Source: a virus
Lineage: Duplodnaviria; Heunggongvirae; Uroviricota; Caudoviricetes
IMG/VR virus record: IMGVR_UViG_2877953467_000002
Direction: 5' to 3' (one strand)
Length of the DNA: 40,890 nt
Made by a program: the position numbers and the translations under genes. Below, piece by piece: positions 1 through 17,765 of the stretch (position 1 is its first letter; each line of letters starts with the position of its first letter). The notes under the pieces are model-generated. The model saw nothing but the letters and a program-made list of their open reading frames with translations. It searched no databases and had not been told where the DNA came from.

Positions 1-1119
1 TCAAATAACCAACTTAACCCATTCCTGACCTCGAGTATCGTTATAGCGATCGGTGGTTGCCTGGACTTTATGTCCTAGTAATGTTTTTGTATCGATACCC
101 TGTGCACGGTACAGCCGTTCTGATAGAGAGCGTTGTTCATGAAATGTTGGCGGAGTTTTTCCTGCTGGTGGAATTATCCCAGCCAGATCCCGTGCTTTGG
201 CAAAGTAGTCGCTCAGGTTGTCTTTACTCATCGGCTTCGGTTGTTTCTGGTGCCGACTATGGATTAGATATGGACTTAATATTCTGTCTCGGCACCCATC
301 AATAACTTCTTTTAACGTTATCCCAATGGCATCACAGCGTAGTGTAAGCGGTAACGCCAGACGCATTCCGGTTTTTCCCTGGGTGATATGCAAGTGTTCG
401 TTCCACACATCTGAAAAACGCATGTGGCAAATGTCATCACGGCGCTGACCAGTAACAATCGCAAGAAGCATTGCGTTACGGATAAAGTGTTTTTCAGGCG
501 TTGCATTGTAAATTTTTTGCCAGTCTTCCATGGTGAGCCTGGCTCTGGTTACTTTAGGGATCGGTTTACGGGTAGCCTCCGGAGGATTCCATCCAGGAGG
601 AACTTCCCCTGCATGCTGTGCTTCTTTATAAATATCAACCCATAATCCACGATTTACTCTCGCTGTGCTGACCATGTCTTTATCCAGCCACTCATCCAGT
701 ATTAATGCAAAGTCTCTTACTTCCAGTTCTTTCAATGGGTGGTTTCCCAGACGGGAAACCAGGTATGCAGCCATTCGAGTTTTTTCTTTGTGAGTTGTAG
801 CTGCAATATCTCCATTTTTCAGTCGCGTGTCCTGTATTTTCAGATATCGATCAACCCATGCCTTTAATCTGATACCCCGACGTTTTGTTGCTGACAGACT
901 TTCATCAATTTTGCGCATGAAATATTCAGCTTCTGCTGCAGCTATTCGCTGATTGGCTGTGGAAGCGATTTTTTCTGCCTTACCTTTGTCTGTTCCGAGT
1001 CCGTGAAATTTTCCAGTCACAGGATTTTTATACTGGTAGTAAACTCTGCCAGTTCTGCGATCAAACTTTTCGTAAAGACCGGCTACGTCAGTGCTGTTTT
1101 TTCGTGGCCTCGGTGACAT
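1..1119 (-). CDS. int: Phage integrase, tyrosine recombinase (lambda Int-like)
   Basis: 372-aa ORF at the prophage edge; C-terminal catalytic region typical of tyrosine recombinases; overlaps the xis start as in lambda. Confidence 0.9.
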   Translation of the reverse strand: MSPRPRKNSTDVAGLYEKFDRRTGRVYYQYKNPVTGKFHGLGTDKGKAEKIASTANQRIAAAEAEYFMRKIDESLSATKRRGIRLKAWVDRYLKIQDTRLKNGDIAATTHKEKTRMAAYLVSRLGNHPLKELEVRDFALILDEWLDKDMVSTARVNRGLWVDIYKEAQHAGEVPPGWNPPEATRKPIPKVTRARLTMEDWQKIYNATPEKHFIRNAMLLAIVTGQRRDDICHMRFSDVWNEHLHITQGKTGMRLALPLTLRCDAIGITLKEVIDGCRDRILSPYLIHSRHQKQPKPMSKDNLSDYFAKARDLAGIIPPAGKTPPTFHEQRSLSERLYRAQGIDTKTLLGHKVQATTDRYNDTRGQEWVKLVI

Positions 1120-1357
1120 GAGTTAAAATCTCCTTCAGTGCATCATCATCGCCAGTATGAATTTCCGGCGCAATTCCCGTTTCACCAGGCCCAACAAATA
1201 CTGCTCGGCGATCTATCAGCCAACGCCCACGAATTTTTTGTGGCCTTGGAACGATGTATCCTAGTTTTCCGTATTTCACCAGGGTAGTGTTTGTTATTGG
1301 GAGACTGAACCGTTTTGGTTTCCACTCGTCGAGCGTTATCAGGTACTGTTCGCTCAT
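1088..1357 (-). CDS. xis: Excisionase-like small DNA-binding protein
   Basis: About 89 aa immediately upstream of int with 32-nt overlap; start taken at ATG 1357 (GGAG 9 nt upstream); N-terminus resembles lambda Xis (LTLDEW vs LTLQEW). Confidence 0.7.
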   Translation of the reverse strand: MSEQYLITLDEWKPKRFSLPITNTTLVKYGKLGYIVPRPQKIRGRWLIDRRAVFVGPGETGIAPEIHTGDDDALKEILTHVTEATKKQH

Positions 1358-1418: not shown

Positions 1419-3860
1419 TTAAAAATCAGCCTGACTCGGGATCAGTTTTTGCCAGATAACTGAAACGTATTTTGCCTGGTAACGGGCGTCATCAAGTGCA
1501 TTATGGCGCTCACCTTCGAATGGAATAGCCGTTCTGGCATCGAAGTCTATGGCTTTCCCCAGCTCAACGATTGTGCGTACATCGCGATCGTTGTAGTAAC
1601 GCCACGGGCAGGGGATCCCCTGCCGTTCGTATGAACGGCGCAAAATCGTGTTGTCGAAGTTGGCTCCATTTCCCCAGACCTGAACAAAAAATTCACCGGA
1701 GTTTTCGTCGATAAATTCCCGCAATTGTAACAGTGCATCATCTAACGGGATTTCATCGGTCATAATGGCAGATTGCGCTTCGCGTGATTGCTTAAGCCAC
1801 CATTTAATGGTGTCCCGATCAATGACTCCGCCAGCAGTTTCCAGATCGATAGTCTTACTAAATTCCGGTCCCATATCTCCGGTTTGCGGATCGAAAAATA
1901 TTGCACCTATTGAGATGATCGGGGCATCAGGATTTTTTCCCATGGTTTCAAGGTCGATCATTAGATGGTCACACGTCCTGCTGGTGGATGTGATTTCTTG
2001 ATGACCGTTCACCTTAATTGAGTGATCTGCCGTCTCGCCAGTTTCATTATCGCTATCGTGATGCTGATTGCCGCCAGTGTTCTCCTTGTGTGGATGTTCA
2101 GCGCCTTCCATTTCCTCCGGATCATCTTCCTGAACTTCAACCTGATACTCTTCATCGAATGTTTCCTGGTATGTTGCGTCGCCCATCACCGCGCCACAAT
2201 CAGGGCAGTTGCCGCCGCCGGTCTGACCGCAGGCGGTGCAGACTTTTTCCACTTCCTGTTGCGCCACTGGTTCGGATTGTTTCGTTTCTGGCTCGTTTTG
2301 TAACGCATTTGGGCTGTTTTGTTCCGCTTTTTGGTCGTTCCGTTCCGATTCATGCTGGTTCTGGTTCACAGAATCGCGAGTCTGGATCCCTTTGACCCAT
2401 TTCGGATCATTAGGGTCGCTAATCCCCTCAACAAATTCACCACGCGATACAGCAAGTAACTTATCGGCGTCAGGCTGGCTGATATTGGCTGCCTGCATAA
2501 TTTTGTTTACTTCGTCAGCGGTGACTTTTACTTGGTTAGCGGAACTCACCTGCGACTGAGCATCCAGCGACTGCGCGTTCTGGCCATGTTCAGTTGTATC
2601 CGGTTCCATTGTTTCAGTTGTTGCCTGTTCACCTGCCATTGCGTCAGATGGTTGTGGTTTTTCTTCTTCTGTTTCACGCTCAGTAACCACCTCGCGGTTA
2701 ATTTCTTCCAGGATATCTTTTTCCGGCGTATGCCGGGCAGCTGTGAGAGTTTCCTTGCTGGGGTTCTCGTGATCAGTTTCCGTCAAATAGGCGTTGATAT
2801 ACCCCTGAAGGCGTCCCGGGTAGTGATAAAATTCAGGGTGTGCGCTTCGGATAAGTGCAAAAATAGCGGCGCGGGAATAGTCCAGAATACCCGGGGTTGC
2901 ACGAAGTGCTGCGGACCATTCTTTGAACGGACTTTCTTTGTTCAGGACTACTTCTTTTGCGCGACGATAAACGCTGCCCGGAATTTCATAAATATTAAAA
3001 TCCATCGGAAGTGTGGCTGCTGCAATCTCCACATCCAGTGTGTCGAGGGTGTGTACTAAATTCGGATTGCGATCGGTTTTGTTCCCACCGCCAGCATTAG
3101 CACCGGAAGCCGTGCGGGTGATGCGTGAAACACGATTTCCTTTCATCCACTCTTTTGTCAGCAGACCCCGATCAGTGTAGTCAGCGTCTAGGTATGCTTC
3201 GAAAAAAGCAGTTATTAGTCCCAGGTCTGAATTACCAGGATTAGGGAAAACTTTGTCAGTGTCACGAACCAGTTTGTGGAGGTCGCGAATCTCCAGCGAG
3301 TCGAGCAGACTGGTTTTATGCGAAATAGCCAGGGCAGTAACAGCCGGTAGTTCTTCAGCCCGTGCAATGTGTAATGCCTGGAGTTCGTCGCGTGAAACGT
3401 GCGTTACTGGTTTTTCGCTGCCGTGTTGAGCAAGCCAACGAATGGGCAGTTCCTGACCGGAGACAGGCAGAAGCATGCTCTCCTCAATCTCAGTCATGGC
3501 TTCGCCGTTGATGTTGGTATTGTCAGTGCTGGCTGGTTTGTCCTGAACAGAGGGGGAAGGGCCGATAAATGTCATTGTGATGCCATCTTTCCCGCCTTTT
3601 TCATAGCGGTTGCAGAATTCAGTATCAAACACGCCTTCTGGCGGAAGGTCGTCAACAACGGGCAAATTGACGCGGACGGGTTTTTTAAAGTCGTCTTCAT
3701 CATAATCGTTGTCATCCATTGCGGTAATGCAGCGGGAGATTGCAACAGATAATTTTTTTGCTGTAGTCCAGTAAAAACCACCTTTAATTCCTAGGCGTTT
3801 TCTTACTTTGTCATTTTTTGCTTCGCAATATAGTGCAAATTCTTCTTTATCAGTGCTCAT
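1419..3860 (-). CDS. Large exonuclease: C-terminal DEDDh (DnaQ-like) 3'-5' exonuclease domain, long acidic N-terminal region with a CxxC...CxxC motif
   Basis: 813-aa ORF; C-terminal motifs [15 protein letters not shown] and HNALDDARY match the three DEDDh exonuclease motifs; position is that of exo/recE-type genes in the leftward early operon. Confidence 0.7.
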
Positions 3861-3953: not shown

Positions 3954-4145
3954 TTAAAATCCTGCCGGGATTTCGTTATTATCCTGGTGAATAACTTTAT
4001 CGACCGGATAACAGTTGCCTGGAATTTTCTGTTCGGTTGCTGCTGCCATACATTCCTGCATTGTTCTGTGAACACTGACTGCAATATCAACTGGCTCTCC
4101 GGAAACAAGAAAAACCGTCAGAATAAGTGCAAATACTGGATTCAT
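3954..4145 (-). CDS. ydfD: YdfD-like small membrane protein (Qin-type lysis protein)
   Basis: 63 aa with hydrophobic N-terminus (MNPVFALILTVFLVSG); ATGA stop/start overlap with dicB; position and size match ydfD of the Qin dicB operon (from memory). Confidence 0.55.
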   Translation of the reverse strand: MNPVFALILTVFLVSGEPVDIAVSVHRTMQECMAAATEQKIPGNCYPVDKVIHQDNNEIPAGF

Positions 4146-4330
4146 TGTGCACATCCTTTTGGCATCAGACGTAAACGGGCCAGCATTGAAACAATGCATA
4201 CTTTATTTAATAACTCCCGTTCGTGTTTTCTTTTGTTAATGGCATCTTCAGTAAATACAGGATTACTGATAGTGACACCAATTTCAAAACAACCTTCAGA
4301 CGTATTAACGTTTGGTAATAACGTTTTCAT
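4142..4330 (-). CDS. dicB: Cell division inhibitor DicB
   Basis: 62-aa ORF MKTLLPNVNTSEGCFEIGV... with GAGGG RBS 7 nt upstream; sits directly downstream of the DicF sRNA; sequence and length match my recollection of DicB. Confidence 0.75.
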   Translation of the reverse strand: MKTLLPNVNTSEGCFEIGVTISNPVFTEDAINKRKHERELLNKVCIVSMLARLRLMPKGCAQ

Positions 4331-4499
4331 TATCGCGCCCTCAACAATGAGTTTTGTGATGCGGTGCCTGGTGCCTCCAGGTGACGTTAACCAGTTAACA
4401 ATTAACGCCGGATACAGAGAATCCACCCATAACACTGTTTTTGGTTTTAACTGTTCCGCGTGCGCTTAGCCGCATTCACCGCATCACAAAATTCACTTT

Positions 4500-4557
4500 A
4501 AAAAGGGCGGCAGAGCAGTCACGGAGTAAAACTGATACCGCCAAACGTCACCAGAAA
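4500..4557 (-). ncRNA. dicF: DicF small RNA (Hfq-dependent, ftsZ-targeting) with intrinsic terminator
   Basis: Reverse complement reads TTTCTGGTGACGTTTGGCGGTATCAGTTTTACTCCGTGACTGCTCTGCCGCCCTTTTT, which matches DicF as I recall it; GC-rich hairpin plus U-tract at the 3' end; immediately upstream of dicB. Confidence 0.7.
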
Positions 4558-4898
4558 ATTGATAACAGAGGGCGTTGCAGTGGGGTTGTCACTTAAGCGT
4601 ATGGTCAACCTGACAACCCGGTGTCCTCAACGGGGGAAGGAATAACCCCGCCATACTTACCGCCGCGCCATTTCGCGGATTGCCACAACCGGAAGCGCAC
4701 GGTCGACGAAAATTTAACGACAGGCTATCTATGAACCAGCTACCTCGCCGTGCGCTTTCGCGTTATGGCCTGACTTTTCAGGGAAATATCCTTTCAGTAA
4801 ACTGTCAGTGCCGGATGCTCACCCGTGTCCGGCGCACGCACTCCACCTCACCCGTGGAGAACTCCTTAATTACCAACCTTAGCTTCGTTGGTTATCTA

Positions 4899-5117
4899 TT
4901 AACGCGGGTATGTAATCATTCTGGCAATGCTTAATGCCGCTGCTTTTTCCAGCCTGGTGATATCCTGCTCCAGAGCGGACAGATTTTCAGCCTGCTTAGC
5001 CCTGGCTTCATTGGCCCATTTCAAATCCTGCGCTGCATTAATTTTCTGGCGCATCCACTCATAAAGTTCATCATCGGTATAGTCTGGCGCGATGATGACG
5101 GGTTCTCGTTTCTGCAT
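4899..5117 (-). CDS. ydfC: YdfC-like protein of the dicB operon
   Basis: 72-aa ORF with AAGGAG RBS; position and length match ydfC upstream of dicF in Qin. Confidence 0.55.
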   Translation of the reverse strand: MQKREPVIIAPDYTDDELYEWMRQKINAAQDLKWANEARAKQAENLSALEQDITRLEKAAALSIARMITYPR

Positions 5118-5841: not shown

Positions 5842-6480
5842 TTAAATATCTTGTTGAATTTTAAAGCATACGCCCAATATGCAAGATAGATCATCCAGCA
5901 TAATTGAAGGGTAGCGAGGATTCGTGGGGACTAAAAGAATATCCGGCCCTTCTATCTCCAGTTTACGAATGACAGGTGTTGTGGTCCCTTTGGGTAAGGC
6001 AAGGACAATATTTCCTGGTTGTACGGTTCGATCGGGATCAACAAAAACTGTTGAACCATTTGGGATGGAAACTCCCCCACCAGATGTTGACATACTGTCA
6101 CTCTCTAGAACAACTGCAAAGGTATTGACCGGGATTTCTCCGACAAGCTGCACACAAGAGGTTATTGAGGAATTTTTCATATAATCACTCCAGCTTGCTG
6201 CCTGCTGAAGTGATAGTAGCGGAACCGTTTTTATCGGCGGTAAAGATAGATCAAGCGAATCACCTGTATTTAACTCTCCTCCATTAAGAAGCCAATTTTC
6301 GTTTACTTTCAATATTTTTGCCAGTGAACTTATGTAACGCGAGGACGGCGCTCCTCCACCGTTCATCCATTGACTTACGGAGCCTTTTGATGCGCCAGTG
6401 CCATTGACAAGGTCTTTGCCTTTCAGGTTTAGCGCATGCATACGTTGGGTTATGCGTTCAGATATAGTTTGCTTGCTCAT
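5842..6480 (-). CDS. cI: CI-type repressor (XRE HTH + S24 LexA-like autopeptidase)
   Basis: 212 aa; N-terminal HTH; C-terminal S24 motifs (ESDSM nucleophile region, downstream Lys); divergent from the cro-like gene; no SD before the ATG, possibly leaderless as for lambda cI. Confidence 0.85.
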   Translation of the reverse strand: MSKQTISERITQRMHALNLKGKDLVNGTGASKGSVSQWMNGGGAPSSRYISSLAKILKVNENWLLNGGELNTGDSLDLSLPPIKTVPLLSLQQAASWSDYMKNSSITSCVQLVGEIPVNTFAVVLESDSMSTSGGGVSIPNGSTVFVDPDRTVQPGNIVLALPKGTTTPVIRKLEIEGPDILLVPTNPRYPSIMLDDLSCILGVCFKIQQDI

Positions 6481-10433: not shown

Positions 10434-10552
10434 GACTGCGGGTGCTTGAGGCTATCTGTCTCAGGCATGAACACCAAAAGGCAGATAGAGAAAAGCCCCA
10501 GTTAACATTACGCGTCCTGCAAGACGCTTAACATTAATCTGAGGCTCAATCT

Positions 10553-10765
10553 ATGAACGGCAAATCTAGGTTAGCCTCTTACGTGCCGAAAGGCAAGGAG
10601 AAGCAGGCTATGAAGCAGCAAAAGGCGATGTTAATCGCCCTGATCGTCATCTGTTTAACCGTCATTGTGACGGCACTGGTAACGAGGAAAGACCTCTGCG
10701 AGGTACGAATCCGAACCGGCCAGACGGAGGTCGCTGTCTTCACAGCTTACGAACCTGAGGAGTAA
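10553..10765 (+). CDS. mok: Mok-like overlapping reading frame (modulator of killing)
   Basis: 70-aa ORF that begins upstream of and runs through the hok frame, as in hok/sok loci. Confidence 0.5.
   Translation: MNGKSRLASYVPKGKEKQAMKQQKAMLIALIVICLTVIVTALVTRKDLCEVRIRTGQTEVAVFTAYEPEE
10610..10765 (+). CDS. hok: Hok/Gef-family type I toxin
   Basis: 51 aa MKQQKAMLIALIVICLTVIVTALVTRKDLCEVRIRTGQTEVAVFTAYEPEE: single TM helix followed by the conserved RK(D/S)LCE(V/I)R...EVAAF-like core of Hok proteins. Confidence 0.8.
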   Translation: MKQQKAMLIALIVICLTVIVTALVTRKDLCEVRIRTGQTEVAVFTAYEPEE

Positions 10766-13613: not shown

Positions 13614-13689
13614 GGCCCTTTAGCTCAGTGGTGAGAGCGAGCGACTCATAATCGCCAGGTCGCTGGTTCAAATCCAGCAAGGGCCACCA
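13614..13689 (+). tRNA. ileZ: tRNA with CAU anticodon, closest to tRNA-Ile2 (ileX/ileZ-like)
   Basis: 76-nt cloverleaf folded by hand: acceptor GGCCCTT/AAGGGCC, D-arm GCTC...GAGC, anticodon loop CTCATAA, T-arm GCTGG TTCAAAT CCAGC, encoded CCA; near-identical to E. coli ileX as recalled. Confidence 0.8.
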
Positions 13690-14031: not shown

Positions 14032-14228
14032 ATTGTCTGGCTGCCGGAGAATTTGTTAAAAATTACATCGCATGGTGAATCCCCCTCAGCGGCGGGGCAT
14101 CTGGCAAAGTGTATGATCCAGAGAACATGCAAATTCAGTAGACAGGCTGAATTTACCGGGAGGCCCCTGGCACCATGCGACAGACAGAAATTAGGCTATA
14201 CTTCAGCCCCTCTCCGGAGGGGCTTTTC
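14032..14228 (+). repeat. Noncoding repeat unit, copy 1, ending in an intrinsic terminator (14205-14228)
   Basis: About 200 bp; shares ATTGTCTGGC, GTTTGTTAAAAA, GCATGGTGAATCCCCCT, an ACCGGGAGGC-CC-GGCACCATGC hairpin motif and the terminator AGCCCCTC-TCCG-GAGGGGCT with copy 2. Confidence 0.5.
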
Positions 14229-14418
14229 TGTGCAGGATGTGTCACAGTTTCCTGAATTCTGAGTACTGTCCTGTTACTCAGGGTGCTATATTTTCTGACG
14301 TGATGAAAGTCTGCCGGAAGGCGGAACGTATCGGAAATGACCCAGTAGAGAAAACGTTGACTCAGATACCGATGCTGAGTTACCGGGAAACCGGCATCAC
14401 ATGACCGCTATCCTTCCA

Positions 14419-14500: not shown

Positions 14501-14693
14501 ATTGTCTGGCCGGCGGGAAGTTTGTTAAAAAATTTCGCATGGTGAATCCCCCTGTGCGGAGGGGTAATCAGCGAGTAGGTATATGGGATAATCGCGGATT
14601 CAGGTGCTGGTACTGAATTCACCGGGAGGCACCCGGCACCATGCAATGGCACATAGCGCCACTCTCCAGCCCCTCTCCGGAGGGGCTGTTTAT
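14501..14693 (+). repeat. Noncoding repeat unit, copy 2, ending in an intrinsic terminator (14668-14693)
   Basis: See copy 1; conserved blocks flank a divergent central segment. Confidence 0.5.
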
Positions 14694-14722
14694 ATTGATT
14701 TTGTCAGATGTGAGTAAACTCC

Positions 14723-15058
14723 TTATGGACTTTGTTGTTTTAGTCCATAAGGACATATTTGCAGAATGCAACGGTTATTAAAGCATTCATTCAATACGTT
14801 ATCTGTATTTGTAGGGCATTCCTGGCTGTTTTTGATTAAATTCCAGAATGTTTTATTGAATGGTACTACGTTGTAAATGGTTACAGGTAGCACTTTGTTA
14901 TTGAGCATGATACCTGTGTGAGTCAGTGTAAATATACTTTCAGGAGGTAAGAAAGCATCCGATTGATACCAGATTATTAATTTTACTTTACTCCATATGA
15001 CTGAAAAAGATATTCCGCATGATGGCTGGATAACTGTATCAATTACAATCCACTTCAT
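14723..15058 (-). CDS. Hypothetical protein in an AT-rich segment (moron candidate)
   Basis: 111-aa ORF with AAGGAAG RBS 6 nt upstream; AT-rich flanks; perfect 12-bp-stem hairpin (14720-14753) at its 3' end; no recognisable domain. Confidence 0.45.
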
Positions 15059-17471: not shown

Positions 17472-17765
17472 TTATTGTGAGCAATACACACGCGCTTCCA
17501 GTGGAGTATAAATGCCTAAAGTAATAAAACCGAGAAATCCATTTACGAATGTTTGCTGGGTTTCTGTTTTAACAACATTTTCTGCGCCGCCACAAATTTT
17601 GGCTGCATCAACAGTTTTCTCCTGTCCAATTCCCGAAACGAAGAAATGATGGGTGATGGTTTCCTTTGGTGTTACTGCTGTCGGTTTGTTTCCAACAGTA
17701 AACGTCTGTTGAGCACATCCTGTAATAAGCATTGCCAGAGCGGCAGAAAACAACATTTTTTTCAT
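17472..17765 (-). CDS. bor: Bor lipoprotein (serum-resistance moron)
   Basis: 97 aa MKKMLFSAALAMLITGCAQQ...; lipobox ITGC; matches lambda Bor as recalled; sits after Rz as in lambda. Confidence 0.9.
   Translation of the reverse strand: MKKMLFSAALAMLITGCAQQTFTVGNKPTAVTPKETITHHFFVSGIGQEKTVDAAKICGGAENVVKTETQQTFVNGFLGFITLGIYTPLEARVYCSQ

Follow-up and report, generated by a model that had tools for sequence, protein, structure and literature searches.

A RecE-type N-terminal region joined to a predicted DEDDh exonuclease domain in a prophage protein without an adjacent recT

Introduction

What kind of nuclease is encoded by a prophage gene that is for the greater part recE, stands next to the xis-int end of a lambdoid prophage and is not followed by recT? 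The question is raised by an 813-aa protein encoded in the window, by which is meant the whole stretch of 40,890 nucleotides of viral DNA analysed here (Caudoviricetes; IMG/VR record IMGVR_UViG_2877953467_000002). The first-pass annotation described the protein as an exonuclease in which a long, acidic, low-complexity N-terminal region is joined to a DnaQ-like DEDDh domain, and treated it as unrelated to RecE. On sequence grounds, what sets the gene apart is instead a module swap within the RecE family, with a sharp junction; it is no new exonuclease extended by an anonymous acidic stretch. The evidence for this reading, the function that the protein might have and the alternatives to it are presented below.

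The gene and its operon

The ORF list contains an ATG-initiated ORF for this protein on the minus strand, so that the gene itself is real (Table 1). Genes that are 100% identical to it are present in many E. coli chromosomes, where PGAP names the product "exonuclease" (WP_000102136.1, strain M217); in phage records, the gene is often labelled "exodeoxyribonuclease VIII". In a PGAP-annotated prophage carrying such an identical gene, the gene order is that of the ORFs in the window. The exonuclease gene directly follows dicF-dicB-ydfD as the last gene of a dicBF-type early-left operon and lies immediately before xis-int. The order of ydfC, DicF, dicB, and ydfD is identical to that in the Qin prophage of K-12. 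The gene adjoins xis directly, and recT, ralR, and rcbA are all missing from this position, in contrast to Rac, in which the order is int-xis-rcbA-ralR-recT-recE. Scanning the operon for promoters and terminators gave background levels only, with no convincing internal promoter or terminator. The dic operon of K-12 Qin is under the control of DicA. By analogy, the operon in the window, which is placed downstream of a repressor gene, should be repressed in the lysogen.

Table 1 Features of the exonuclease gene and its surroundings (positions in the window)
Feature	Position	Strand	Basis
Integrase	1-1119	-	ORF list; PGAP annotation of matching prophage
Excisionase	1088-1357	-	ORF list; PGAP annotation of matching prophage
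Whole gene: 813-aa mosaic RecE-family protein, RecE-type N-region plus DEDDh tail	1419..3860	-	ORF list; Pfam PF06630 and PF16473
DEDDh (DnaQ-like, PF16473, DexA-type) 3'-5' exonuclease domain (predicted), aa 631-813	1422..1970	-	Pfam; AF2; Foldseek; conservation
Acidic disordered linker, aa 556-630	1971..2195	-	pLDDT below 50; composition; dN/dS
Zn-ribbon-like motif C541-x2-C544-x7-C552-x2-C555	2196..2240	-	Sequence
Two short helices and conserved motif, aa 447-489	2394..2522	-	Homologue alignments; dN/dS
Helical middle region, aa 271-400	2661..3050	-	AF2 pLDDT 73-97; alignments
Head, RecE-type N-terminal module, aa 1-270	3051..3860	-	Pfam; BLASTP to Rac RecE; AF2; dN/dS
Upstream genes, dicBF-type early-left operon	3954..5117	-	PGAP annotation of matching prophage; Rfam; K-12 Qin order
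ydfD	3954-4145	-	PGAP annotation of matching prophage
dicB	4142-4330	-	PGAP annotation of matching prophage
DicF sRNA	4505-4556	-	Rfam DicF, 76.7 bits
ydfC	4899-5117	-	PGAP annotation of matching prophage

The C-terminal domain

The tail of the protein is confidently predicted to be a DEDDh domain of the DnaQ fold. PF16473 (Rv2179c-like DEDDh) matches aa 632-803 with E=1.2e-67 and a score of 227.4 bits, against a gathering cut-off of 27, and the match covers positions 2-177 of the 177 in the profile. All five catalytic residues (D636, E638, D736, H786, and D791) are present in the C-terminal 183 aa, within the motif sites IDLETMG (635-641), WGNGANFD (729-736), and HNALDDARY (786-794), and they align with D7, E9, D119, H186, and D191 of T4 DexA. 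They are invariant or nearly so among 37 homologues and invariant in 46 close full-length genes. AlphaFold2 modelled the domain with a pLDDT of about 90. Using Foldseek, T4 DexA (8KEL) was retrieved as the best match (E=8e-12, TM 0.67), followed by RNase T, Orn/REXO2, and DnaQ, with a probability of 1.00 for the domains of all these proteins. DexA is also the best match of the tail in a sequence search of the PDB (E=1.8e-6), and T4-type DexA proteins carry PF16473 themselves. Thus, the DnaQ-like domain that had been read from the motifs was recovered by Pfam, AF2, and Foldseek alike, all of which give a nuclease and not some other fold.

The tail had also been set apart from the PD-(D/E)XK enzymes RecE and lambda Exo, and this distinction is borne out. 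The window protein has no match to PF12684 (DUF3799; PD-(D/E)XK), to which Rac RecE gives E=4e-28, and the structure of the RecE nuclease (RecE 606-866) was not matched in a PDB sequence search with the window protein. A preference for DNA or RNA cannot be read from the sequence of the tail, given that PF16473 owes its name to an exoribonuclease and that RNase T and Orn are close to the tail in structure. Distant stand-alone PF16473 genes are located in DNA replication or DNA-metabolism modules.

The RecE-type N-region and the mosaic junction

The N-terminal ~612 residues are homologous to those of Rac RecE (K-12 b1350), one half of the RecET recombinase. A match to PF06630 (E=1.5e-35) spans aa 57-189, and BLASTP aligned residues 58-615 with residues 50-591 of Rac RecE at 59% identity, with no alignment past RecE residue 591. 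Over residues 1-615, the protein shows 94% identity to the N-region of a Rac-type RecE with the classical nuclease and a recT (locus L044). Three quarters of the protein is RecE, and the view that it is unrelated to RecE had to be given up. It is not an ordinary RecE ortholog either: the NCBIfam exodeoxyribonuclease VIII model NF007259 is matched only at positions 1-602 of 877, and the score of 944.4 bits does not reach the equivalog cut-off of 1269 bits. The function of the N-terminal ~600 aa of RecE is unassigned, although full-length RecE boosts linear-linear recombination (PMC11611040). About ten long homologues of the N-region were seen to carry no recognisable tail domain.

The description of the N-terminal part as acidic was correct (18% D+E vs 10% K+R over the N-terminal 620 aa), but that as low-complexity was not. 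According to the AlphaFold2 model, aa ~10-100 and ~125-400 form folded units (pLDDT around 90), and only 401-446, 490-537, and 561-630 are disordered; the low dN/dS of the head, given below, likewise speaks against low complexity. Within the head, an alpha/beta unit (aa ~10-100) is predicted to be followed by helices, with a pLDDT of about 90. No structural neighbour of residues ~10-400 was found in the PDB. In the alignments, aa 271-400 are common to RecE and weakly to the YdfE-headed variant discussed in the last section.

Further downstream, two short helices and a conserved motif of 16 residues (aa 473-488) are together flanked by disordered acidic stretches. The motif can be aligned in Rac RecE and in proteins of Klebsiella/Enterobacter, and its [IVL]SDPxDPxW core is present in 24 of 51 divergent homologues. 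The four cysteines of the Zn-ribbon-like motif are separated by x2, x7, and x2, the central spacing having been given previously as x4. Rac RecE has them, as do 44-46 of 46 close relatives, whereas just 5 of the 51 divergent ones do. In the stretch of aa 521-630, D+E make up 24% of the residues.

The junction of the mosaic lies inside the linker, at nucleotide 1837 of the gene (window position ~2024), after the sequence ...ETGETAD that ends at aa 612. In a blastn comparison with the recE-type gene of L044, nucleotides 1-1837 were 95.2% identical and nothing was matched beyond. Because the homology to Rac-type recE ends abruptly at this point, a clean swap of modules is indicated.

Absence of an annealase partner

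The probes used for annealases were RecT (two types), Bet, and Erf only. None of them gave a match when tblastn was run over the whole window, and no annealase was present in the PGAP annotation of the matching prophage or in a PHROGs scan of ten early-region ORFs, in agreement with what had been noted before. Gam and lambda Exo were searched too, and neither was found. In a census of 80 related loci, most of them from closely related E. coli prophages and not independent of one another, all eight genes with a PD-(D/E)XK tail had a RecT-family gene immediately downstream, and RecT, RecT2, Bet, or Erf was found within ±8 kb at none of the 68 DEDDh-tailed loci. The label "exodeoxyribonuclease VIII" is misleading for the gene in the window, because its nuclease domain has been swapped, recT is absent, and its score is below the equivalog cut-off.

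Prevalence, integrity, and selection

The DEDDh tail was detected in 4,048 of 5,426 complete E. coli genomes (75%), at up to 7 places per genome, and the tail of Rac-type RecE in 32%. The DEDDh-tailed form outnumbers classical RecE more than twofold and is the commonest "RecE" in E. coli. DEDDh-tailed genes also occur in two sequenced phages, Tritos and mEp460_ev081. Homologues that are only 39-45% identical have the same architecture, and the gene was found beside at least four types of downstream excisionase-sized ORF. Among 68 related ORFs, 55 are intact at 804-825 aa and 13 are short or broken; in one lineage, the gene is broken into three ORFs in different frames.

As calculated from 46 distinct intact genes, every module is under purifying selection. 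The dN/dS of the head (0.12-0.13) is as low as that of the catalytic domain, for which a value of 0.17 was obtained. Values of 0.32, 0.17, and 0.47 were found for aa 271-440, aa 441-520, and the linker, respectively. The gene is commonplace in E. coli, and the chimera is without a description in the literature searched, in which no published function of a RecE-N::DEDDh fusion was found either. A paper on Gifsy prophages (PMC9879122) deals with classical RecE/RecT and is not relevant to the chimera.

Proposed function and alternatives

The gene is a mosaic member of the RecE family and probably encodes a solo 3'-5' DNA exonuclease trimming the ends of linear DNA. A DexA-type DEDDh domain, joined at a sharp point in the linker, has taken the place of the classical PD-(D/E)XK 5'-3' nuclease and of the downstream recT. 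The enzyme would be Mg2+-dependent and take nucleotides off free 3' ends of DNA, and it would act alone and not pair with an annealase as in a SynExo recombinase. The N-region may provide the DEDDh tail with the same targeting, scaffolding, or partner binding as it does the RecE nuclease; that it targets the protein to DNA ends is an assumption. The protein is expected to be made mainly upon prophage induction or derepression of the operon. Its most likely role would be the processing of linear DNA ends in phage DNA metabolism, by trimming or removing 3' tails and not by generating them for annealases. A 3'-5' exonuclease offers no obvious benefit in the textbook scheme of lambdoid recombination.

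A wider interpretation can be offered tentatively. The RecE-type N-region might be a nuclease-agnostic carrier that lambdoid prophages combine with exonucleases of opposite polarity, the DEDDh form then being an annealase-free factor for DNA-end processing, end protection, or phage exclusion and no recombinase. If so, the function of the N-region would be independent of 5'-3' resection and of RecT, and the N-region might bind DNA ends or a host factor.

Among the other explanations, the one that survives best, although it is considered unlikely, is that the protein is an anti-phage nuclease of the HREX/EcD type, the tail of which would selectively degrade incoming modified phage DNA (5hmC-type), starting at the 3' ends, and in this way protect the lysogen (superinfection exclusion). 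The gene shares its operon with dicB, for which a block to infection by some phages has been reported, and the retention of the tail in so many E. coli genomes, at several places in some of them, would fit a benefit to the host. The tail also belongs to the same Pfam family as DexA, its best structural match, and EcD, a stand-alone DexA homologue of E. coli (HAK9828821.1), cuts 5hmC DNA but leaves unmodified DNA uncut, and its leaky expression is enough to protect against T4 (PMC12153337). No other published functional precedent was found among the family members that bacteria or prophages encode. However, the residues of DexA to which 5hmC recognition has been ascribed are not conserved in the window protein: W152 has Y756 as its counterpart, in a variable column, and D169 has A770, at a place where the alignment is less certain. 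The tetramer residue D90 of DexA, which is Ala in EcD, is retained as D708; these comparisons with HREX were made via DexA numbering alone. Moreover, EcD is not a close relative, since none of the proteins retrieved has its termini. Patterns derived from the EcD primers had no true match in viral contigs (one chance match), and a DexA-seeded homologue search yielded T4-type DexA only and no EcD. With PADLOC-DB 2.0.0, 0 families were assigned to the window protein, and its stand-alone relatives gave only weak, generic Cas-associated DEDDh matches. The expected repression of the operon in the lysogen and the presence of a long N-region that EcD lacks also argue against this role.

Activity on RNA is more doubtful still. 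The protein would then resemble Rv2179c, RNase T, or Orn as a 3'-5' exoribonuclease, working, for example, on the 3' ends of transcripts from the operon, among them the DicF precursor, or on host RNAs during induction. The gene and an sRNA that arises by processing of the operon transcript are transcribed together, the Pfam family takes its name from the exoribonuclease Rv2179c of M. tuberculosis, and RNase T and the oligoribonucleases are strong structural matches. Yet the nearest solved relative, by sequence as well as by fold, is the DNA exonuclease DexA, and on the common N-region the DEDDh domain stands in for a dsDNA exonuclease. In addition, the distant stand-alone homologues adjoin genes for DNA polymerases, helicases, primases, and ligases, and RNase T also acts on DNA in crystal structures among the Foldseek matches.

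Finally, it is highly improbable that the gene has no function, was left behind by an illegitimate deletion or recombination in which the nuclease domain of recE and recT were lost, and now persists only by hitch-hiking in prophages: the abrupt junction inside a disordered linker, the 13 short or broken ORFs, the lineage with three ORFs, and the interruption of K-12 ydfE by IS2E would fit such a remnant or pseudogene, but it is disfavoured by selection (dN/dS of 0.12-0.17 for head, motif region, and tail; invariant catalytic residues), by a prevalence exceeding that of classical RecE more than twofold, and by the distribution over divergent homologues, different downstream ORFs, and the two sequenced phages.

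Significance

A solo 3'-5' DNA exonuclease with a RecE-type N-region would have consequences for annotation as well as for experiment. Counts of "RecET-type recombination modules" in prophages are inflated if they are based on the name "exodeoxyribonuclease VIII" or on PF06630. Nature also provides near-isogenic pairs, in which N-regions that are 94-95% identical are followed either by a PD-(D/E)XK tail and RecT or by a DEDDh tail alone. With these pairs, the function of the N-region can be tested, and it has to be one that is compatible with both polarities and does not depend on RecT. A protein that evolves under purifying selection and is present, often as several copies, in three quarters of the complete E. 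coli genomes represents a sizeable gap in prophage biology. The report on EcD/HREX raises the possibility of a role in phage-phage conflict, and a 3'-5' exonuclease tethered to a RecE N-region may be attractive for recombineering or the engineering of DNA ends.

Comparison with known systems

The window protein has PF06630, the 16-residue motif, the Zn-ribbon, and the acidic linker in common with Rac RecE, and both are encoded by early-left genes of lambdoid prophages near xis-int. The two proteins differ in their catalytic domains, PD-(D/E)XK (PF12684) in Rac RecE and DEDDh (PF16473) in the window protein. Rac RecE is a 5'-3' dsDNA exonuclease, whereas the DEDDh fold of the window protein predicts a 3'-5' polarity. 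Unlike Rac-type recE, the gene in the window has no downstream recT.

The position of the gene is shared with ydfE of K-12 Qin (b1577, a pseudogene), the last gene of the dicBF operon there. The K-12 gene is cut by IS2E and has no nuclease. Over its first 256 aa, the 823-aa protein of Tritos and mEp460 is 99% identical to K-12 YdfE, and it is nearly identical to the window protein over aa ~440-813, which include the DEDDh tail. In Tritos, mEp460, and K-12 Qin, the RecE-type head is replaced by an unrelated YdfE-type head. The gene in the window as an intact version of K-12 ydfE is ruled out, since BLASTP gave no significant similarity; judging from these alignments, that designation holds only for the sister variant of 823 aa.

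T4 DexA (exonuclease A; PDB 8KEL/8KEN) is a 3'-5' exoDNase (PMC12153337) that shares PF16473 and the five aligned DEDDh residues with the tail of the window protein. The identity between the two is only about 22-28%, and several loops of DexA are missing from the window domain. DexA stands alone and comes from a virulent phage that degrades host DNA, whereas the window domain is fused to a 630-aa N-region and comes from a temperate lambdoid prophage with unmodified DNA. EcD, or "HREX", is like the window tail an E. coli-encoded DEDDh exonuclease of the DexA family. It is a stand-alone protein with the termini MIDTET... and ...TIPETY, while in the window protein the corresponding domain is preceded by a RecE-type N-region.

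Domain architecture and active site

The open reading frame in which the first-pass annotation had seen a long N-terminal region joined to a C-terminal exonuclease domain proved to be real (ATG start, 813 aa). Its product, the window protein, is indeed acidic over the N-terminal 620 aa (D+E 18 % vs K+R 10 %); the label "low-complexity" for this region was not upheld, and the cysteine motif reported as CxxC-x4-CxxC is in fact spaced CxxC-x7-CxxC (C541, C544, C552, C555). The three DnaQ-like motifs were located at aa 635-641 (IDLETMG), 729-736 (WGNGANFD), and 786-794 (HNALDDARY), and Pfam bears out the exonuclease claim by assigning aa 632-803 to PF16473 (Rv2179c-like 3'-5' exonuclease, E = 1.2e-67). 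PF06630 (Enterobacterial exodeoxyribonuclease VIII) covers aa 57-189 (E = 1.5e-35). The NCBIfam equivalog model for exodeoxyribonuclease VIII is matched over model positions 1-602 of 877 only, with 944 bits, below the curated cut-off of 1269.

In an alignment with 36 homologues (55-87 % identity), D736, H786, and D791 never vary, and conservation of D636 and E638 is 90 % or higher; all five catalytic residues are invariant across 46 close full-length genes. The AlphaFold2 model of aa 600-813 has a pLDDT of about 90 across the whole domain, and disorder is limited to the first 27 residues, the linker. When this model was compared with the PDB using Foldseek, T4 exonuclease A, DexA (8KEL/8KEN), was the top match (E = 8e-12, TM 0.67), followed by RNase T, DnaQ domains, and oligoribonuclease/REXO2. 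DexA is also the sole PDB match by sequence (E = 1.8e-6), and PF16473 includes the T4-type DexA proteins. DexA residues D7, E9, D119, H186, and D191 align with D636, E638, D736, H786, and D791, respectively. From the conserved catalytic residues, the modelled fold, and the match to DexA, the tail is predicted with high confidence to be a catalytically competent DnaQ-like DEDDh exonuclease domain. The DnaQ-like DEDDh superfamily is characterized by 3'-5' polarity and metal dependence, and by analogy both properties would apply to the window protein.

A mosaic of three modules

Judging from sequence comparisons, the family is evidently made up of three interchangeable modules, a head, a middle, and a tail. 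The head is either RecE-type, as in the window protein and Rac RecE, or YdfE-type, as in an 823-aa protein of phages Tritos and mEp460_ev081, whose N-terminal 256 aa match the K-12 Qin pseudogene ydfE at 99 % identity. No match was found between K-12 YdfE and the window protein. The middle (aa ~270-615) is common to the window protein, Rac RecE, and the YdfE-headed protein, and from aa ~440 through the end the Tritos and window proteins are almost identical. The tail is of the PD-(D/E)XK or the DEDDh type. The junction can be placed using a Rac-type recE from IMG/VR (L044, 890 aa), which aligns collinearly with the window gene at 95.2 % identity over nt 1-1837 (94 % at the protein level over aa 1-615). 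Similarity stops abruptly past ...ETGE(T/V)AD, at aa 612 (window position ~2024), within the disordered acidic linker; beyond it, L044 carries a PD-(D/E)XK tail that is 98.5 % identical to that of Rac RecE, followed by recT. Stand-alone DEDDh modules (180-240 aa, 55-87 % identical) occur in E. coli, E. albertii, Salmonella, Klebsiella, and Enterobacter, directly upstream of xis-int in both contexts examined.

Several further arrangements were seen. In K-12 Qin (L015, 7079-7999), ydfE represents only the N-terminus, truncated by IS2E, of the 823-aa exonuclease (YdfE-head::DEDDh) that is intact in Tritos and mEp460_ev081. A Salmonella prophage (L007, 3637-9217) has a stand-alone 189-aa DEDDh gene that immediately precedes xis-int and immediately follows a DndB-like gene (PF14072, matching the PADLOC DndB model), with YfdP- and DUF2303-family genes upstream. 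In one E. coli prophage lineage (L011, 737-3127), the modules are encoded by three ORFs in a row that differ in frame: the YdfE-type head (456 aa), the middle (157 aa), and the DEDDh protein (183 aa), which belongs to a cluster of 277 member sequences; the split could be functional, or the locus could be a frameshifted pseudogene that has become widespread. In the 703-aa database protein P0127, the RecE-type N-region (PF06630) is joined directly to a RecT domain (aa 528-678, Pfam), and the nuclease tail seems to have been lost through an in-frame deletion. Seven RecE-N-region homologues of 680-814 aa (P0137, P0205, P0207, P0219, P0177, P0124, and P0128) have no recognisable DEDDh or PD-(D/E)XK tail and may carry further, unrecognised tail modules.

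Absence of an annealase

As the first-pass annotation had claimed, no annealase accompanies the gene: tblastn of the window with RecT (two types), Bet, Erf, lambda Exo, and Gam gave no match, and none is annotated by PGAP in a prophage with an identical exonuclease gene and matching gene order. The other early ORFs were assigned using PHROGs to a replication initiator, a Ren-like protein, a CII-like activator, an HNH/DUF968 protein, and unknowns.

Eighty IMG/VR loci were retrieved via the shared N/middle module and sorted by tail; they are mostly related E. coli prophages, so that the counts are not independent events. The tail was of the DEDDh type in 68 loci. Within the ±8 kb available around these, RecT of either type, Bet, and Erf are all absent, and the ORF that comes next, if visible, usually has the size of an excisionase (67-92 aa, at least four sequence types). 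In all eight loci with a PD-(D/E)XK tail, a RecT-family gene follows immediately (four Rac-type, four a divergent 367-aa PF03837 protein). Contig ends cut the remaining four. Both architectures recur in representatives whose identity to the window protein is as low as 38-45 % over the matched stretches: PF06630 with PF16473 in P0126, P0130, P0133, and P0141, and PF06630 with PF12684 in P0142, P0146, P0149, and P0161. Among 53 sequences bearing the N-region, 8 have a DEDDh tail, 20 a PD-(D/E)XK tail, and 25 neither, the last being fragments or proteins with unrecognised tails.

Operon and prophage context

Features of the window prophage
Feature	Position	Strand	Remarks
Exonuclease gene	1419-3860	minus	
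ydfD	3954-4145	minus	early-left operon
dicB	4142-4330	minus	early-left operon
DicF sRNA	4505-4556	minus	Rfam RF00039, 76.7 bits; inside early-left operon
ydfC	4899-5117	minus	early-left operon
cI-like repressor	5842-6480	minus	212 aa
sok antitoxin RNA	10440-10615	plus	RF01794, 112 bits
hokD-type toxin gene	~10610-10765		PGAP annotation of matching prophage
tRNA	13614-13686	plus	phage-borne
STnc100 sRNA, copy 1	14040-14233	plus	Rfam RF02076, 138 bits
STnc100 sRNA, copy 2	14509-14697	plus	Rfam RF02076, 132 bits
IraM	14723-15058	minus	moron-type; anti-adapter
Iss	~17472-17765	minus	moron-type; increased-serum-survival lipoprotein, lysis region

The gene order is cI-like repressor...ydfC-DicF-dicB-ydfD-exonuclease-xis-int, the same as in the K-12 Qin dicBF operon and unlike that of Rac (int-xis-rcbA-ralR-recT-recE). 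With DicF located inside its early-left operon, the prophage, which appears complete, possesses an entire dicBF-type operon, as does the cryptic Qin prophage. A scan for internal promoters and terminators of the operon stayed at background level, with none convincing.

The repressor is about 200 aa long in a phage record, and for strain M217 PGAP annotates just a 112-aa "LexA family protein" at this site, which is probably a start-site or annotation difference. The sok RNA adjoins the hokD-type gene, forming a type I toxin-antitoxin pair. The tandem STnc100 copies lie downstream of the Q antiterminator and tRNA region. The tRNA is named tRNA-Ile by PGAP and tRNA-Met (CAT) in a phage record whose region is identical, a conflict that would fit a lysidine-modified tRNA-Ile2. 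Iss and IraM are annotated in the matching prophage.

Prevalence

Copies of the window gene at 100 % identity occur in many E. coli chromosomes, annotated by PGAP as "exonuclease", and in induced phages, labelled there as "exodeoxyribonuclease VIII". Searching with the 567-nt DEDDh tail by megablast (coverage of 80 % or more) gave hits in 4,048 of 5,426 complete E. coli genomes; these total 8,111 places, with as many as 7 in a single genome. The nuclease tail of Rac-type RecE is carried by 1,730 of the genomes (1,827 places). By tblastn, 1,614 phage records contain homologues of the PF16473 type. Four distant phages have the stand-alone gene within early or DNA-metabolism gene clusters with no annotated annealase, and three of these clusters hold replication or repair genes (DNA polymerase and Cas4-type exonuclease; helicase and primase; ligase and PNK).

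Proposed function and alternatives

A proposal for the function can start from the observed architecture and junction, the intact active site, the confident fold, purifying selection, the absence of an annealase, and the operon position. The window protein would be a Mg2+-dependent 3'-5' exonuclease on DNA 3' ends that acts solo, not as half of an exonuclease/annealase pair. Its RecE-type N-region would give the DEDDh tail the same targeting or scaffolding, whatever that is, as in RecE, and it would be expressed along with the early-left operon once the prophage is induced or the operon derepressed. The most economical reading is that it processes, trims, or protects the ends of linear DNA in the course of phage DNA metabolism. 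Feeding of an annealing pathway is unlikely because the protein would remove, not create, 3' tails. Taken as a whole, we regard this account as reasonably probable.

A defence nuclease of the HREX type is an unlikely alternative, for which EcD, a stand-alone E. coli DexA homologue reported to cleave only 5hmC DNA and to protect against T4 (PMC12153337), is the only functional precedent found among non-T4 members. The DexA residues tied to 5hmC recognition, W152 and D169 (PMC12153337), are replaced in the alignment, which is less certain around D169, by Y756 and A770, whereas the residue whose loss marks EcD is kept (D90, here D708). The termini of EcD differ as well, in a comparison that covered DexA residues and EcD termini. 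In addition, PADLOC gave no match for the window protein, and in the lysogen the operon should be under repression. Still less probable is an exoribonuclease, suggested by the PF16473 family name and by RNase T and Orn as structural neighbours, given the affinity to DexA and the DNA-metabolism contexts of the relatives. A functionless remnant is hardly credible and was rejected on purifying selection, distribution, and prevalence.

Comparison with known systems

The object itself is not new, since public databases already show its architecture and thousands of genomes have the gene annotated. In the literature, covered incompletely, no paper was found on the tail swap or on testing of the window protein. 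The protein is not very surprising, yet for the RecE N-region, still to be explained, it supplies a natural near-isogenic handle; it also brings to light a prophage protein that is very common, has no known role, and often bears a misleading name. With RecE, it shares common descent over three quarters of its length. It is not the ordinary RecE ortholog that the first-pass annotation had allowed for: the defining PD-(D/E)XK domain and RecT partner of RecE/ExoVIII are missing and the equivalog cut-off is not reached, and therefore it should not be filed as RecE. With the DexA-type exonucleases, as a fellow member of PF16473, it is predicted to work alike. It is very probably a RecE-family mosaic whose DEDDh tail is active, not a RecET-type recombinase.
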